Below, one piece after another: positions 142-10,888 of a stretch of 39,811 nt of DNA. The position numbers and the translations under genes were made by a program. The first letter of the stretch is position 1. Each line of letters starts with the position of its first letter. Under the pieces are notes generated by a model that saw only the letters and a list, made by a program, of their open reading frames with translations, was not told the DNA's origin and searched no databases. This DNA comes from a virus, in the IMG/VR virus record IMGVR_UViG_3300045988_064194, positions 1 through 39,811 of that record; one strand, given 5' to 3'.

Positions 142-2424
142 GCGGGCGAGCAGGAAGCGCTTTACCGCACATTCCAGGATAAGACCGTCCTGTCCGACGC
201 CGCGATCGGCGTCCGGAACGCGCTCAACAAGGCGCATATCGGCGACATTGGCGCGGGTGACATCATGCTCCCGTTTGCGCAGGTCCCGTCGAACCTCGGC
301 GCGCGGGCGATCGAGTATTCCCCTGCCGGGCTGCTCGTTTCCGCAGCAGATTTCATCAATATGCTTGATTCCGCGAAGAAGGGCAACCTGACTGCGGCCC
401 AGCAGGCAAAGGCGGTGCAGGGCGTAGGCCGCGCGCTGACCGGCTCCGGCATGATCGCCATTGCGGCGGCAGGCGCGCTGCGTGGCTGGCTGAAAGTCAC
501 CGGTGACGATGACGACAAGAACAAGGACGCGCTCGGCAAGACGCACGGCCTTGACGGCACGCAGCTCAATATCAGCGCGGCTCTGCGGGATCTGCGCGGG
601 GAAAGCACGCAATGGCAGGCGGGCGACCAGCTGCTTTCTATTGGCTTCCTCGACCCGCTCAACGCGCAGCTCACGACCGGCGCGCTTATTGCAGACGATA
701 TCCGCAGTGAGGCTGGCGTGACGGCCGGGCGTGTGCTCGGAAACTCGCTTTCCGGCGCGCTGCAGTCTGTTTTGGACACGCCCGTTATGTCCACGTTCCA
801 GGACGTGGCGACGAACTATGAGTACAGCGGAGCCAGCACGCCGGGTGGGAAGATGATGGACGCGGCGCAGAAATACGCGGCGAACCAGCTTTCCAGCGTC
901 ATTCCGAATTCGCTGCGCGGTATTGCGCAGGGTCTCGACGACACGGAGCGGAATGCCTATTCCTCGGATAACGTCTGGCAGCAGGCAGTCGACAACGCGA
1001 AAGCGTCCATCCCAGGCCTGCGGGAGACGCTTCCGGCGAAGACGGACGTCTGGGGAAATCCGGTCAAGAACGAAGGCGGCATCCGCAACTTCATGAACCG
1101 GAATATCAATCCCGGCAACGTCACAACGTACAAGCCGGACGCGGTATCCTCCGAGATCGAGAAAATCAGCGAGGCGACGAACACCTCTCTGTATCCTGAC
1201 CGCACTGCCCCGCGCTCTTTGAAGGTCGACGGCGAGGCTGTCAGCCTGACGTTCGAGCAGCGCAGCATGTATCAGAAAGCCTACGGCGATGCGTATTCCG
1301 CCGCCGTGACCTCGCTCATGAACGACAAGAACTACAAGGCCATGCCGGACAGCATGAAAGCCGAGATCCTGCAGCAGGCGAAGGACACCGCTACAGAGCA
1401 GGCGCGGGACAGCCTCGGCATCGGGTATGAAGTGAAATCCTCTGCACAGAAGATCTTGGAGAAGTCCGGCGCGGAGCGCAACAACGCGCTGATCTCCGCC
1501 GCCGTCAAAGCGCAGCACTATTTGTCTCCGGAGACGCAGAAACAGCTTTCTGACGTCGACCGGCAGTTCGGCGGCGCTGACTATGTCGGCTTGTCTGACG
1601 AGCTTTTCAACGCTGCGAAGGAAAAGGCGAACACCTACTTCTCGGCGGTCGAGGCTGCCAAGTATGGCGGCGAGCTGAACGAGACGCAGAAGGAGCTTGC
1701 GGACAAGGACAGCAAGGAGATGGCGCGGTACTTTATGGAGCAGGCTATCGAATCCCGCTATACCGACACGAACAAGAGCGGGACGAAAGCCGACGAGTAT
1801 CTGAAAGCATACCGGCATGGCGAGCTCAACGATGCAATGGCGCTGGCTGTTCTGAGCGACAAGGAGGTCATGGCATACGATCGCTTCGGCCGGAGCGCGA
1901 AGGTAACGCCGGAAATGGCGCTGCAGGCGGCAAACGCTCATGCCGGGATGAAGGATGTCAAGGACGAGGACGGCAAGGTCACAAGCAGCGCGCAGGACCA
2001 GTTCGACGCATGGCTCGACAAACAGAGCTGGACGGACGATCAGAAATCTGCTGTCCGCATGGGCTTCTACTCTGACAGTGTCAAGACCTACAGCTATCTG
2101 GCAGACCAGCTCCACAAAGGGAACATCAACACGGCGGCGGCAAAGAGTGAGCTTTCCGCGACGTACCAGTCCGGTTGGACGCATAACGTCAAGGATACCG
2201 GCGCTAAGATGGTTGATTACGTGGACGCCATTGTTGAGTATGAAGACCGGCCAAGCAAAGAGGAACTCGACGATGCAGGGTATAGCTATGTATGGCAGTG
2301 GTTCTGTGACTATCTCAATACTACGGACCTGACCAGAGAACAGAAGTATGCTATGGCGATCAGCATCAAGAAGAACGACTATGGCGACGGCACAAAGCAG
2401 AAGATCTGGAACAGGCTCAGATAA
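1..2424 (+). CDS. C-terminal 807 aa of the giant (about 2200 aa) virion/ejection-type polyvalent protein; same gene as 35492..39811
   Basis: The frame is open from nt 1, and the same frame has been open since ATG 35492 at the other window end. TAA at 2422-2424. Gly/Ala-rich hydrophobic helix GSGMIAIAAAGALRG. Confidence 0.8.
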   Translation: MSVWEAYEGYTLNATDEFQKGGIEASVQKGIDRLYENGKITDDSLRNAGEQEALYRTFQDKTVLSDAAIGVRNALNKAHIGDIGAGDIMLPFAQVPSNLGARAIEYSPAGLLVSAADFINMLDSAKKGNLTAAQQAKAVQGVGRALTGSGMIAIAAAGALRGWLKVTGDDDDKNKDALGKTHGLDGTQLNISAALRDLRGESTQWQAGDQLLSIGFLDPLNAQLTTGALIADDIRSEAGVTAGRVLGNSLSGALQSVLDTPVMSTFQDVATNYEYSGASTPGGKMMDAAQKYAANQLSSVIPNSLRGIAQGLDDTERNAYSSDNVWQQAVDNAKASIPGLRETLPAKTDVWGNPVKNEGGIRNFMNRNINPGNVTTYKPDAVSSEIEKISEATNTSLYPDRTAPRSLKVDGEAVSLTFEQRSMYQKAYGDAYSAAVTSLMNDKNYKAMPDSMKAEILQQAKDTATEQARDSLGIGYEVKSSAQKILEKSGAERNNALISAAVKAQHYLSPETQKQLSDVDRQFGGADYVGLSDELFNAAKEKANTYFSAVEAAKYGGELNETQKELADKDSKEMARYFMEQAIESRYTDTNKSGTKADEYLKAYRHGELNDAMALAVLSDKEVMAYDRFGRSAKVTPEMALQAANAHAGMKDVKDEDGKVTSSAQDQFDAWLDKQSWTDDQKSAVRMGFYSDSVKTYSYLADQLHKGNINTAAAKSELSATYQSGWTHNVKDTGAKMVDYVDAIVEYEDRPSKEELDDAGYSYVWQWFCDYLNTTDLTREQKYAMAISIKKNDYGDGTKQKIWNRLR

Positions 2425-6810: not shown

Positions 6811-7821
6811 CTACGCAAAGAAGTTTTTGATCTGCTGAACAGAATCGGAGATATCCGCCTGCGCAATGTGTGTATATATTTTTCGCATGGTTCCGTAGTC
6901 CGACCAGCCCCCAAGCTGCATTGTGACTTTTTCAGATATCCCTAATTTATAGGCGAGGGAGCAGAAAGAATGCCTTAGTCCGTGTGTCCCGACTTCCGGC
7001 AGGTTCGCTTTTCTGCATATTTTATTTGCGGAGGCTCGGATGCTATTCGGGTTTGCGATTACGACAAATTCACTGGTTCTTTCTGCGTCAGAAAGCAGCT
7101 GAAATAGTCTTGGTATCATGATCGGGATCGTCCGCCGGGAAGAACGGTTTTTGTTCGTTGGCTTGTTTACCAGCTTGTTATTTTCGTCAAACAAGGTTGC
7201 CCCCCGAACTGTTATGGACTGCTTTTTCAAATCAACGTTTTCCCAACGTAAGCCTAAAATCTCGGATACGCGCAAAGAGTGCAGAGCAAGCAAAAATGCA
7301 ATTTCGTATTTGCTTCCTTCTGCCTCTTTGAGGAATACCGGAATTTCTTCTGCGGACAAAAATGCATGCTCGTCGGACTGAACAGCGGGAAGCGATACGT
7401 CATAAGATACGCTGTATTGTTTAAGAGCTGGGCGTATCAGTGCCCATGTTTCGCGAATGGTCTTCGGGCTGCATTTTTCGGTGTTGATCGCCTGCTGGAT
7501 GGCGCTTACAGAAAGTTTAGATAAAGGAATGTCCATGATGGACTGTAGATAACAACGCTGCTTGATTCTGTGCCCACGCACAGAAGCTGGGGAGAGCACC
7601 CCGCTTTTCAGGGTCAGATACTCGTCAATCGCTTTTCGTATTGTGATTTCCGGTTTTTCGTTTTCTTCGGCAAGAAGCCCTATTTTGTACTCCAAAGCAG
7701 CCTGTTCCGCTTCCCGTTTTGTAGGGGCTGTGAAAGACTTCTTTTGCCCATTCACCATCACGCGGCAGCGGAAGGAGCCGGAGGGGAGTTTTTCAGCTTC
7801 GGGGACTTTGACTTTCTTCAT
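6811..7821 (-). CDS. int: Tyrosine recombinase / phage integrase (336 aa)
   Basis: C-terminal catalytic pattern ...LRVSEILGLRWENV...HGLRHSFCSLAY...GGWSDYGTMRKIYTHI. ATG 7821 preceded by AAGGAGAA (the track start at 7869 is further upstream). Confidence 0.9.
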   Translation of the reverse strand: MKKVKVPEAEKLPSGSFRCRVMVNGQKKSFTAPTKREAEQAALEYKIGLLAEENEKPEITIRKAIDEYLTLKSGVLSPASVRGHRIKQRCYLQSIMDIPLSKLSVSAIQQAINTEKCSPKTIRETWALIRPALKQYSVSYDVSLPAVQSDEHAFLSAEEIPVFLKEAEGSKYEIAFLLALHSLRVSEILGLRWENVDLKKQSITVRGATLFDENNKLVNKPTNKNRSSRRTIPIMIPRLFQLLSDAERTSEFVVIANPNSIRASANKICRKANLPEVGTHGLRHSFCSLAYKLGISEKVTMQLGGWSDYGTMRKIYTHIAQADISDSVQQIKNFFA

Positions 7822-8365
7822 GTTGGTTCTCCTTGCGGATGATGCGGAGGATGGTGATACCGGCAGCAACGGCGGAGGCGACGATCAGGCCGATGAAGGC
7901 CCAAGCGGCGCCGGACAGTCTGCCGCCGCGGATGATACCGGCGTCAGTGATCTGGGAGTCGATCATGAGATAGACAATGAGCGACAGCGCCAGAATGATG
8001 CAGAAGAAGACGAGCACATAGCAGATCGTGTGCGTGGATCTGATCTGTGCTTTCTGCGCCGCGTTGGCTGTGACGAGCTTGGCATTTTCGAGTTCGAGCT
8101 GGTGGTTGCGTTCCTGCAGCTCGCTTGGGCTGTCGGCAGGTTTCTCCAGCCCGCAGAGAGCATCAAGCGATAGCCCAAGCGTATCAGCGATTGCAGCTTC
8201 GTTGTACAACAGTGGGTTTGCCTGCACACCAGAGTTGACGCGGCTCACATTCGAGTACGGTACACCAGACCTTTCCGAAAGCGCACTGATCGTCATTCCG
8301 ACTTCGTTTCTTCTTCGCTTTATTTTTTCTGAATAGGCTTCAAAAAACGGTGCAAGCTTCTCCAT
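7793..8365 (-). CDS. XRE-family HTH protein with a coiled coil and two C-terminal TM helices (membrane-anchored regulator)
   Basis: HTH MTISALSERSGVPYSNVSRVNSG. TM segments ICYVLVFFCIILALSLIVYLMI and AAWAFIGLIVASAVAAGITIL. The 3' end overlaps the int start by 29 nt. The start may instead be TTG 8374, which lies 8 nt after GGAGG. Confidence 0.7.
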   Translation of the reverse strand: MEKLAPFFEAYSEKIKRRRNEVGMTISALSERSGVPYSNVSRVNSGVQANPLLYNEAAIADTLGLSLDALCGLEKPADSPSELQERNHQLELENAKLVTANAAQKAQIRSTHTICYVLVFFCIILALSLIVYLMIDSQITDAGIIRGGRLSGAAWAFIGLIVASAVAAGITILRIIRKENQHEESQSPRS

Positions 8366-8425
8366 TGATGTCAAAATAAACGCCTCCAACAACAAGATTC
8401 CAAAAATAGGTTAAAATTGCAATTT

Positions 8426-8578: not shown

Positions 8579-9832
8579 TTACGGGTTACAGTTCTTGCAG
8601 GGGACATAGCCCATGTTGATGACGCTGTCGCGTGTGCCGGTATAATACCACTTGTTTTTCTCAGACATCTTCGCAACACTCTTGCACCAGCTGTAATGGA
8701 ACTTGCCGGTGTTGGTATTGATTACATAGTTGCAGTTCGCCGGGGGTGTTGTGGTGCTGGTGGTTTGATTTGATGATGCGGTGTTTCCAGAGCCCTGCGG
8801 CTTCTGCGGAGTCTGAGAGGAAGAAGAACTATTTGCAGAGCTTTGAGAAACTGATACATCTACAGTAACGGTCGCTGTATTACCTGCTGCATCAGATATT
8901 TTTAAGTCTGCACTCCCCGCAATCTCCTTGCTGGCGATTATAACCATACGGTGGTTTGCGGGATGATCATCAAGCCTGTTTACGCTGCTTACAGTAACGA
9001 TTGATTCATTGCTGCTTTTGCATGTGACCGTGGAATTCTGCACCGACTGGCCTACATATACATCGAAATAAATCAAACGATTCGCATCATCGATATAAAG
9101 ATTGCCTTTGTCATTGAAGTAATTTGGATCCGCATATACAGAAATGTCCCGTGCTTTTACAGCTCCTGTTTTGCGAAGGTCTGGAAGAATAACTCTTGAA
9201 AGAATGGCACTAGCTTCTGCTCGGGTGATTCTCTCATCTTCATTAAAAGTGCCGGAGGAATCAGAACCAGTAAGAATGCCCGCATTAAACAGCTGATAGA
9301 TTTCCTCAGCATATGTAGTGTAAATTGTAACGCCAGGAATCAGGCCGAACCCAATATGGTTGATGTCTTTATAAGCGTCCTTCGGCAGAGCATGGGTTAT
9401 CAGATAAGCGAAGATCTCCTTTGTAATAATACCGGTATAGAAATCAGCAGTTGGGGGATTCGTAAAAGAAAGTATGTCATTTTTTGCGGCATAATCTACA
9501 TAAACTTGGAACCACGGGGAAGACTGTTCGAATTCGCCTGTTCCACCATAGTAGATGTTATGCAACCGACATGCGATCGCTAGCCCTTCCGCAAGTGTCA
9601 TTTCTCCTTTTGGTTTGAATAAGCCTGCATCCGTTCCAGCCATCAAACCATACTCACAGACGGTTTTTACGCTTTCTTCATACCATGAAAAAATTGGTAC
9701 GTCCGAGAATCCGGTATATTCCGTCTGCTTCTTGAAGTTCGACAGGCCGGGGCTTGCTGCGCATACTGGCACGGCCAGCGCCAGTAGAAGAACAACTGCG
9801 AGGAATAGGCTGATAATCCGTTTCTGCTTCAT
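8579..9832 (-). CDS. Secreted SLH-domain surface protein with an Ig-like (Big_2-like) domain, a Ser/Thr linker and a C-terminal Cys-rich KFH...C...PCKNC module (moron)
   Basis: Signal peptide MKQKRIISLFLAVVLLLALAVPVCAA. SLH motifs FSDVPIFSWY...GLMAGTDAGLFKP and ...GILTGSDSSGTFNEDERITRAEASAILSR. Visibly AT-richer than the phage backbone. Confidence 0.8.
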   Translation of the reverse strand: MKQKRIISLFLAVVLLLALAVPVCAASPGLSNFKKQTEYTGFSDVPIFSWYEESVKTVCEYGLMAGTDAGLFKPKGEMTLAEGLAIACRLHNIYYGGTGEFEQSSPWFQVYVDYAAKNDILSFTNPPTADFYTGIITKEIFAYLITHALPKDAYKDINHIGFGLIPGVTIYTTYAEEIYQLFNAGILTGSDSSGTFNEDERITRAEASAILSRVILPDLRKTGAVKARDISVYADPNYFNDKGNLYIDDANRLIYFDVYVGQSVQNSTVTCKSSNESIVTVSSVNRLDDHPANHRMVIIASKEIAGSADLKISDAAGNTATVTVDVSVSQSSANSSSSSQTPQKPQGSGNTASSNQTTSTTTPPANCNYVINTNTGKFHYSWCKSVAKMSEKNKWYYTGTRDSVINMGYVPCKNCNP

Positions 9833-9915
9833 TGTATCACTTCTCCGGTCTGTAAAAATTGTATAAAAAATTCTTTCGTAGAAATTGAGCGACAGATTTT
9901 GTGAAAACTTCCGTA

Positions 9916-9944
9916 TTGAAGAAAACGAACATATGTTCTAAAAT
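9916..9944 (+). promoter_or_regulatory. Sigma-A-type promoter (TTGAAG-17-TAAAAT) with a LexA box in the spacer
   Basis: -35 at 9916-9921, -10 at 9939-9944, 17-nt spacer AAAACGAACATATGTTC. Confidence 0.55.
9926..9939. promoter_or_regulatory. LexA (Cheo/SOS) box
   Basis: CGAACATATGTTCT matches 13 of 14 positions of the idealised Firmicute box CGAACATATGTTCG. The core GAACATATGTTC is a perfect 12-nt palindrome. Confidence 0.65.
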
Positions 9945-9976
9945 AAAAACAAGCCAAAAGGAAAGGAGCCAGCCGC

Positions 9977-10108
9977 ATGACACGTGAGGAAGCGCAGAAG
10001 TACATAGCCAAGCTGACCTACGAGGAAAAGAAGAAGCTTAACGATTTGCTAACAGCCCTTGCACAAAGGCGTCAACCTTCTGCATCTCCTCAGGCGTCAA
10101 AGAAGTAA
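9977..10108 (+). CDS. 43-aa ORF downstream of the LexA-controlled promoter; candidate micro-antirepressor (may alternatively be a non-coding antisense RNA)
   Basis: AAAGGAAAGGAG RBS 8 nt before the ATG. MTREEAQKYIAKLTYEEKKKLNDLLTALAQRRQPSASPQASKK. Convergently overlaps the last 71 nt of the repressor gene. Too short for the ORF track. Confidence 0.4.
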   Translation: MTREEAQKYIAKLTYEEKKKLNDLLTALAQRRQPSASPQASKK

Positions 10109-10358
10109 GCTTCGAAACAAGTTCATCGTCCAAAGCTCTCTCGTCCGTAGGGACGAGGGGGCTTTTTTCGTCCCCAAACAGGAGGTATTGCGAGTCAACC
10201 CCAAAATAGTCTGCAATTCTCTGCAAGACGGCCGGGCGAGGCGTCGAGCCGTTTTTCCATAGGACAACATTTGAAGAAGAACAGCCTAGTTTTTGCGCAA
10301 CCGGAGTCGGCTTCTCGCCGTTTCGCTCACACAGCATTTTGAAATTGTCATAAAACAT
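10038..10358 (-). CDS. CI-like XRE-family repressor (106 aa, no S24 peptidase domain)
   Basis: HTH PTPVAQKLGCSSSNVVLWKNGSTPRPAVLQRIADYFGV. GGAGG RBS 8 nt upstream. Divergent from the early operon. Confidence 0.8.
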   Translation of the reverse strand: MFYDNFKMLCERNGEKPTPVAQKLGCSSSNVVLWKNGSTPRPAVLQRIADYFGVDSQYLLFGDEKSPLVPTDERALDDELVSKLTSLTPEEMQKVDAFVQGLLANR

Positions 10359-10390
10359 AAATAGAGCCTCCGTATTTTGTGCAATACGCC

Positions 10391-10413
10391 AAAAGTAATA
10401 TATTATTACTTTT
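10391..10413. promoter_or_regulatory. Candidate operator: inverted repeat AAAAGTAAT-N5-ATTACTTTT
   Basis: 9-nt perfect arms in the repressor/early-operon intergenic region. A related half-site AAAACTAAT lies at 10421-10429, next to the -35 of the rightward promoter. Confidence 0.45.
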
Positions 10414-10417
10414 GAAC

Positions 10418-10446
10418 TTGAAAACTAATAAAATATGAGTTATTAT
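10418..10446 (+). promoter_or_regulatory. Candidate early rightward promoter (TTGAAA-17-TATTAT)
   Basis: -35 at 10418-10423, -10 at 10441-10446. Followed by a leader of about 170 nt with an 8-bp hairpin at 10478-10498. Confidence 0.45.
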
Positions 10447-10621
10447 ATACATGTACCCGGGAGGTGCAACAAAGCGACAGTGCCGAGGGGCGGCACTGCT
10501 GTGGTGAAAGATAGACGGTAAAGCCTGATTTACTTGTTTATGTAGCACTTTCATCTTAGCACTAACGTCTCCGGCCTGTCAACACAAAACTCATGTTTAT
10601 GAGGCATAAGGAGGAAAAAAT

Positions 10622-10888
10622 ATGAATTTCAAACCGTGTTCCATTGAGGAAACCAAGAAAGCCGCAACCAAAGGCATTTATGCAGACTTCGTTGAGAGCT
10701 TCCGCGCGAGCGGCGCAGAATGCGCCAGAGTTGACGGTCTCACAACAAGGACGGACAGTGCGTATGCTTCGCTGAGTATGGCAGCCAGAAGGGCGGGCGA
10801 CGTTCGCTGCATGATTCGGAAAGGCGTGATCTATTTGGCGCGTGTGGATGCGCTGGATAAGATGGAGGCGGCAGGATGCCAGCGGTAA
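10622..10888 (+). CDS. Hypothetical early protein (88 aa)
   Basis: Strong AAGGAGGA RBS; first gene of the rightward operon. Confidence 0.6.
   Translation: MNFKPCSIEETKKAATKGIYADFVESFRASGAECARVDGLTTRTDSAYASLSMAARRAGDVRCMIRKGVIYLARVDALDKMEAAGCQR

Follow-up and report, generated by a model that had tools for sequence, protein, structure and literature searches.

A LexA-type box and a 43-residue micro-ORF facing a prophage repressor gene: a candidate antirepressor module in a phage of human-gut Oscillospiraceae

The window considered here is the whole 39,811-nucleotide (nt) stretch of the IMG/VR viral record IMGVR_UViG_3300045988_064194. It contains a prophage beside host genes, and the phage is assigned to human-gut Oscillospiraceae (class Clostridia); related contigs come from human-gut metagenomes, one of them belonging to a metagenome-assembled genome (MAG) of an uncultured Oscillospiraceae. 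The subject is a rightward transcription unit of about 218 nt (~9951 to 10168), with a promoter, a CGAAC-N4-GTTCT box, a ribosome-binding site, an open reading frame (ORF) of 43 amino acids (aa) and a 12-bp hairpin followed by T6. The unit runs head-on into the 3' end of the gene of a 106-aa XRE/HTH_3 repressor (10038-10358, minus strand), identified as such with Pfam, PHROGs and AlphaFold2. An earlier note, made from the sequence alone, had proposed an SOS micro-antirepressor/antisense switch at this place; the positions that it gave for the promoter, the box, the Shine-Dalgarno (SD) motif, the ATG and the gene overlap were all correct on re-reading the sequence.

The promoter consists of a -35 hexamer TTGAAG (9916-9921) and a -10 hexamer TAAAAT (9939-9944) separated by 17 nt, and the promoter scan reports it as the earlier note had drawn it. 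The LexA-type (Cheo) box CGAACATATGTTCT (9926-9939) lies inside this spacer, its last T being common with the -10 hexamer, and contains the perfect palindrome GAACATATGTTC. It matches the ideal Cheo box CGAACATATGTTCG at 13 of 14 positions, as announced. The arms agree with GAAC-N4-GTT(C/T), the LexA operator of Bacillus and Clostridium, for which operators have been verified in clostridia (PMC4234289). Transcription would start near 9951. An SD motif, AAGGAG (9963-9968), precedes the ATG at 9977 by 8 nt.

Within the window alone, the occurrence of GAAC-N4-GTTC is not statistically remarkable (2 seen for 0.52 expected, with at least 2 in 9 of 100 shuffles), and the significance of the box comes from comparison among relatives. 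Scans with the repressor and the small protein gave about 70 loci, corresponding to 36 further distinct versions of the region. The -35 hexamer begins with TTG in 36 of 36 related sequences, the -10 hexamer is identical in 35 of 36, AAAGGAG is found in nearly all, and the overlap of the box with the core promoter is kept in the 36. Moreover, the order of elements (TTG-type -35, 17-nt spacer with the box, TAAAAT, AAAGGAG, ORF, hairpin and T-run) is the same in all versions except one short, divergent contig (L073). Across the 36 relatives, the box arms are about 90% or more identical, and the central N4 is only about 50% identical and occurs in 13 forms. On this alignment, conserved arms around a free centre are the footprint expected of a dimer-binding operator. 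The second GAAC-N4-GTTC of the window (25480) lies in the coding sequence of a structural gene, and second boxes in relatives lie in that of the integrase; both are most simply chance matches.

The micro-ORF (9977-10108, plus strand) encodes the 43-aa candidate antirepressor MTREEAQKYIAKLTYEEKKKLNDLLTALAQRRQPSASPQASKK and shares 71 nt with the convergent repressor gene. For codons 2-20, all outside this shared stretch, the ratio of nonsynonymous to synonymous polymorphism (pN/pS) is 0.26 in the ORF frame vs 2.05 and 1.28 in the other frames. Read from this signature, the micro-ORF is a real gene under purifying selection where the repressor gene is not overlapped, and the 43-codon frame recognised in the earlier note is indeed coding. 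In the overlap region, the low-pN/pS frame belongs to the repressor. There, peptide residues 33-43 vary freely because the wobble positions of the repressor fall on second codon positions of the micro-ORF. AlphaFold2 predicts helices at residues 3-11 and 15-32 (predicted local distance difference test, pLDDT, 90-95) followed by a disordered end, and the functional core corresponds to residues 1-32, the variable, disordered part to residues 33-43. The sequence lacks a hydrophobic segment able to span a membrane.

A profile search of 1.8 billion representative proteins (E <= 0.001) places the peptide in a family that comprises, at 50% identity, 96 clusters or more, almost all with members of 35-80 aa, and has the consensus MT.EEA..YI..LT.EEK..LN.LLK.LEQ.RQ. 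None of the 96 clusters carries an annotation. The longer proteins among the matches turned out to be over-extended ORF calls rather than fusions to helix-turn-helix (HTH) domains. No relatives of the micro-protein were found in Pfam, PHROGs, PDB or GenBank phage records, and a scan of a genome collection with the small-protein alignment returned two MAG contigs only. Gene tables of four ENA contigs (L019-L022) list the 43-aa micro-ORF and no gene at the overlapping 100-aa repressor ORF, which may be an annotation pitfall for overlapping convergent pairs.

The unit ends at an intrinsic terminator (10135-10168, plus strand) located antisense inside the repressor gene. Its 12-bp stem (10135-10146 with 10151-10162) is closed by a GUAG loop and directly followed by T6 (10163-10168). 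The hairpin folds at -27.1 kcal/mol (z = -4.9; 0 of 200 shuffles fold as well) and is thus stronger than the earlier note described; a simple terminator scan of the sequence missed it. Among the relatives, 93.5% of alignment cells in the stem are paired, and 8 pairs vary on both sides. G.U pairs are frequent in the stem and would turn into C.A mismatches in RNA of the opposite strand, which indicates that the structure was selected on the plus-strand transcript.

A second, possible long-range RNA stem joins 9978-9990 (5' arm) with 10087-10099 (3' arm) on the plus strand, with 95% of cells paired. The 5' arm takes in the last two bases (U and G) of the start codon of the micro-ORF plus the 11 nt that follow; the 3' arm lies in codons 37-41 and is the antisense of the repressor tail codons LTPEE. 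At wobble positions of the peptide 'TREE' and of the antisense tail 'TPEE', two pairs change in a compensatory manner (CG/GC/UA and AU/GC/GU). This stem could serve to control translation, or it could be what is left of a gene conversion between the two coding segments or of an inverted duplication. In the corresponding 23-nt inverted repeat, the outer part (9994-10000 with 10077-10083) is not conserved (57.5% of cells paired) and was dropped, and an alifold pairing of the SD region with the terminator U-run was judged an artefact of A/U runs.

On the opposite strand, the repressor has a Pfam match to HTH_3 only, and the matching PHROGs families are transcriptional repressors and regulators. 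No peptidase S24 domain, with its Ser-Lys dyad, was matched by Pfam in the 106-aa protein. AlphaFold2 predicts a five-helix HTH domain (residues 1-61, pLDDT about 95), a flexible linker (62-72) and two C-terminal helices (73-85 and 89-104), in agreement with the earlier description of an HTH domain and a short tail without S24. The two helices of the small protein are similar in length to those of this tail. The conserved 44-aa tail, DEKSPLV...LTPEEMQKVDAFVQGLLANR (10041-10172, minus strand; consensus across related loci DEK...LTPEE.QKVDAFVQGLLANR), is the proposed target of the micro-protein, and it is encoded entirely antisense to the small transcript.

Tail and small gene travel together. 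At least 7 HTH domains that are unrelated to one another carry one 44-residue tail, and in each case the overlap with the small gene is the identical 71 nt; conversely, the HTH domain of the window is also found with at least 8 other tails. Thus, the small gene is co-inherited with the repressor tail, whatever the HTH domain or the neighbouring cargo gene. Between the window and loci with another HTH domain, nucleotide identity is 78-94% over 9950-10150 and 30-40% (background) after about 10170. The mosaic breakpoint falls at the terminator T-run, on the last base of the terminator, where the opposite strand reads GAC GAA AAA, that is, DEK. This position of the identity drop shows that the conserved block is exactly the small transcription unit, the tail being entirely in its antisense strand. 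In a pairwise comparison with one relative (L023), the HTH-coding part and the adjacent operator region (10170-10450) are replaced (30-54% identity) between flanks that are both 82-94% identical, which on the alignment is an immunity-cassette mosaic.

Repressors with other tails offer a view of sister systems. Seven such loci (L075, L077, L078, L082, L083, L084 and L086), each with a convergent micro-ORF, were scored for resemblance of the small protein to the repressor's own tail; a further one, L085, gave no clear micro-ORF candidate. The micro-ORF overlaps the repressor end in L075, L082, L083 and L084, and lies beyond it in L078, L086 and L077, at a distance of 1 kb in the last. Significant likeness was found in 4 of the 7: L075 (3272-3400, minus strand; z = 8.2 vs shuffles), L078 (3399-3539, minus; z = 6.6), L084 (~1683-1850, minus; z = 4.7) and L077 (4398-4544, minus; z = 3.8). 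It was not significant in L086 (2077-2232, minus; z = 1.4), L082 (z = -0.6) and L083 (z = -1.0). In L075, L078, L084, L077 and L086, whose repressors have the HTH domain of the window, the micro-ORF products measure 42-56 aa. Permutation of the cognate assignments over eight tail types (the window and the seven) gives p = 5.5e-4. Promoters of equal design, with a GAAC-N4-GTT(C/T)-type box, stand at the micro-ORFs of L075, L077 and L086, as well as in L080, a variant of the window's own family; the promoter of the L078 micro-ORF has no box of this type.

Taken together, the conservation of the unit, the coding signature of the ORF, the plus-strand-specific terminator, the S24-less repressor and the co-inheritance of small gene and tail form the basis of a functional reading. 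The best explanation is that the element serves to induce a temperate phage with a repressor unable to cleave itself. It is probable, by analogy with SinI and AimX, that the small protein is a LexA-derepressed antirepressor that binds the repressor tail. In a lysogen, host LexA would sit on the CGAAC-N4-GTTCT box in the spacer of the sigma-A-type promoter and keep it shut. Upon DNA damage, LexA would be cleaved and the promoter would fire, giving the transcript of ~218 nt (~9951 to 10168) that would end at the terminator antisense in the repressor gene. Its translation would yield the 43-aa protein, the first 32 residues of which are predicted to form two helices. By analogy with SinI-SinR and AimX-AimC, this protein would bind the two-helix C-terminal tail of the 106-aa repressor in place of a second repressor tail. 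With the tail occupied, the repressor would neither oligomerise nor bind its operator, and the lytic genes would be turned on. The effect might be strengthened by antisense pairing with the last 130 nt of the repressor gene and by transcription running convergently into them, neither of which the model requires.

The closest known system is AimX-AimC of the 'extended arbitrium' Bacillus phages phi106, BMBtp14, Wbeta and Waukesha92 (Kabel et al., bioRxiv 10.1101/2025.11.23.689978; PDB 9SF2, 9IAQ). AimX of phi106, a protein of 29 aa, is encoded convergently to aimC, in overlap with it and downstream of a LexA site; its binding to the C-terminal oligomerisation domain of the repressor has been demonstrated (bioRxiv 10.1101/2025.11.23.689978). 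Like AimC (80-140 aa), the repressor of the window is a short HTH protein with a linker, a small helical C-terminal domain and no autocleavage domain; the C-terminal domain of AimC is the oligomerisation domain, and the matching layout on the window side is that of an AlphaFold2 model. Like AimX (29-80 aa), the micro-ORF is convergent, predicted to be helical and able to overlap the repressor 3' end (43 aa, two helices and 71 nt in the window), and, as in phi106, a LexA-type site stands just upstream. AimX, a small helical protein, binds to the repressor's C-terminal domain and blocks oligomerisation, and the peptide of the window may by analogy do likewise. Both systems consist of highly divergent and specific pairs. 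The authors themselves likened AimX-AimC to SinI-SinR, and they found very few AimC/AimL homologues outside arbitrium systems (bioRxiv 10.1101/2025.11.23.689978).

There are also differences. The host is a gut Oscillospiraceae (class Clostridia) and not a Bacillus. Moreover, AimR and AimP genes are absent, the neighbour being a leftward cargo gene, and no AimR-like ORF lies between the integrase and the repressor, either in the window or in the relatives. As AimR/AimP are missing, LexA would be the only input, and the module would work like AimX-AimC without being an arbitrium system. The statement of the earlier note that an overlapping micro-antirepressor had not been described is therefore outdated, AimX of phi106 having an equal layout (bioRxiv 10.1101/2025.11.23.689978; PDB 9SF2). 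The new points are the absence of arbitrium, the host in another class of bacteria and the membership in a sizeable protein family without annotation; the design itself is already known.

SinI-SinR of Bacillus subtilis (PDB 1B0N; PMC3163267) offers a second comparison. SinR likewise has a phage-repressor-like five-helix HTH domain and a two-helix C-terminal domain, and SinI is a small helical antagonist related to that C-terminal domain, the heterodimer abolishing DNA binding. In contrast with the module of the window, the SinI-SinR pair is chromosomal, serves biofilm control under Spo0A rather than LexA, and is encoded by genes that are neither convergent nor overlapping. The Pfam SinI domain has no match in the repressor or the small protein of the window. 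Over the full-length fold, the matches of the repressor model include 9SF2, 9IAQ and 1B0N (SinR-SinI, chain A).

LexA-controlled antirepressors have long been known, as the earlier note pointed out for 186, Gifsy and N15: Tum of phage 186, GfoA/GfhA of the Gifsy phages and AntC of N15 (PMC3121763), to which the small Sar of SPbeta-like phages may be added (10.1101/2025.11.27.690993). In these cases, host LexA represses the gene of an antirepressor that, by a route other than proteolysis, disables a non-cleavable repressor; the element of the window would by analogy belong with them. The proteins are, however, larger or act differently, bear no sequence relation to the peptide of the window, and their genes are not antisense to a repressor 3' end. 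Sar mimics the DNA recognised by an integrase-fold repressor, unlike the action proposed here. Finally, Silpe et al. (Nature 2023, PMC10432266) described transcription factor-small ORF (TF-smORF) modules in Vibrio plasmid-like phages, where a cI repressor is put out of action by the phage's own small protein; no homologues of these proteins are known, and their effect is strictly specific and involves no proteolysis. Unlike the unit of the window, the modules are switched on by quorum sensing or a dedicated transcription factor, independently of SOS, and are found in Gram-negative hosts.

Several observations weigh against an AimX-like antirepressor under LexA control. No sequence homology to AimX, AimC or SinI was found, the repressor profile matching 9SF2 over the HTH domain only (E = 3e-4). 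The small-protein profile found no related chain among solved structures, AimX included, and Foldseek matches the repressor to SinR and AimC with poor scores (E = 0.01-0.15) that are due to the HTH domain. The peptide and tail of the window itself resemble each other weakly (Smith-Waterman score z = 2.9, p = 0.016; hhalign P = 7.7e-4, probability 25%), BLASTP aligns nothing between small protein and repressor, and in three other variants of the family the peptide-tail resemblance gives p = 0.06-0.23. In the distant family members L087-L091, the ORF, the tail, the overlap and the terminator are kept, and no Cheo box is recognisable; LexA control is thus not universal to the family. The host assignment, moreover, is based on one uncultured Oscillospiraceae MAG, and LexA control is read from the Bacillus/Clostridium motif.

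Alternatively, the effector could be the RNA or the act of transcription, through antisense pairing with the last 130 nt of the repressor mRNA, to which the transcript is complementary in full, or polymerase collision with the repressor-cargo operon, the ORF being secondary. The transcript does overlap the repressor gene (10038-10168), with the terminator inside that gene, the conserved DNA block coincides with the transcription unit, and the covarying long-range stem suggests constraints at the RNA level. This alternative is nonetheless unlikely. In phi106, an antisense interaction was judged most likely not consequential by the authors (bioRxiv 10.1101/2025.11.23.689978). In the present unit, purifying selection clearly acts at the protein level on the 20 codons that do not overlap, SD and ATG are both kept among relatives, and family members can still be recognised as proteins when about 40% identical. 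Furthermore, sister micro-ORFs that do not overlap their repressor (L078) or lie 1 kb away (L077) still resemble the tail. Thus, of the twofold proposal of the earlier note, the antirepressor part is well supported by comparison; the antisense or collision part is possible and has no support of its own, the selection pattern favouring a protein effector.

If the effector is a protein, it could still be an SOS effector with a different target, such as LexA or RecA, as for gp7 of GIL01, or cell division, on which the LexA-controlled small proteins SidA, YneA and SosA act; adjacency to the repressor would then be mere genome packing. LexA-controlled small proteins in such roles do exist, gp7 being one that targets LexA or RecA (PMC4551915). 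We regard this as improbable, and slightly more so than an RNA effector: the peptide has no membrane-spanning segment, its gene always accompanies one particular repressor tail, whatever the HTH domain or the cargo, and micro-ORFs resemble their own tails in four of the seven scored repressors with other tails.

Least likely of all, the palindrome would not be a LexA site but an operator for a phage protein, or would mainly control the leftward SLH cargo gene, as its place in the divergent intergenic region 95 nt upstream of the cargo start codon, its non-significance in the window alone and its absence from distant family members would allow, but its arms reproduce the GAAC/GTTC of Firmicute LexA operators exactly, N4 being free, it lies inside the rightward promoter spacer with no convincing leftward promoter overlapping it in the promoter scan, it stays while the cargo gene varies between relatives, and unrelated repressor DNA-binding domains occur beside one and the same box, which makes a phage repressor an unlikely ligand.

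Beyond the LexA-derepressed antirepressor of the window, a wider and more tentative proposal can be made, which we hold to be possible rather than probable. S24-less XRE repressors of gut Clostridia phages would consist of two exchangeable parts, an HTH 'immunity' domain and a C-terminal tail, and each tail would come with its own convergent micro-gene, born by inverted duplication of the tail-coding DNA and encoding a self-mimic antirepressor. In the clade of the window, the LexA-box promoter, the micro-gene, the terminator and the antisense-encoded tail would form a single recombination cassette, maybe acting both as peptide and as antisense or structured RNA. If true, this would represent a general, arbitrium-independent route to SOS inducibility for phages and a large unannotated class of overlapping micro-proteins.

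The induction of temperate phages of the dominant gut Clostridia is largely unknown, and many repressors there lack a self-cleavage domain. In this context, the element offers a concrete, testable switch whose four parts are a LexA box, a peptide of 43 aa, the tail of the repressor and a cassette of compact size (~250 bp). The AimX-AimC/SinI-SinR principle, demonstrated until now in Bacillus arbitrium phages only, would with it reach phages that lack arbitrium and live in another class of bacteria, and at least 96 protein clusters are added that annotation pipelines overlook or call wrongly. The pairing of tail and micro-gene could also be a means to predict how specific induction is and what cross-talk arises between gut prophages that reside together.

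As to the surroundings, the tyrosine integrase gene (6811-7869, minus strand) is the leftmost of the prophage genes listed. Next to it, the gene of a 200-aa HTH protein (7793-8395, minus strand) overlaps by its 3' end the start of the integrase ORF as listed; its product combines HTH_3, a coiled-coil region and two membrane segments, and homologues of it (190 aa) occupy the equivalent place in relatives. The cargo gene (8579-9832, minus strand), downstream of the repressor and divergent from the small-gene promoter, encodes a 417-aa secreted SLH-domain protein, identified as such with Pfam. Its position is held by other genes in relatives, a lipoprotein or a membrane protein elsewhere, the small-gene unit being constant. 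The cargo protein of the window and the protein encoded at 430-1449 (minus strand) in L087 have in common a Cys-rich C-terminal motif, ...C..V....W.........Y.PC..CNP, with a weak match to Ada_Zn_binding. To the right of the repressor, the rightward early genes begin at 10622. No match to GenBank phage records was obtained in DNA and protein searches, and none to Rfam over 9700-10700.

Other palindromes and promoters were observed around the repressor and in relatives. Upstream of the micro-ORF, the distant members L087-L091 carry other promoter-embedded palindromes, such as TTACATTTTTGTAA in L088, which may point to another regulator in those hosts or to a LexA motif unlike this one. In the window, a perfect 11-bp inverted repeat, CAAAAGTAATA-TAT-TATTACTTTTG (10390-10414), lies between the repressor start and a rightward promoter TTGAAA-17-TATTAT (10418-10446), and overlaps a leftward promoter TTTTCA-16-TATATT (10424-10397). 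This repeat is a likely operator of the 106-aa repressor. Farther upstream of the repressor gene, a strong leftward promoter with a TG element, TTGACA-18-TAAGAT (10582-10553), is followed about 50 nt on by a terminator-like hairpin on the minus strand (10499-10477), an arrangement which suggests a short leftward RNA or an attenuator (10477-10582, minus strand).

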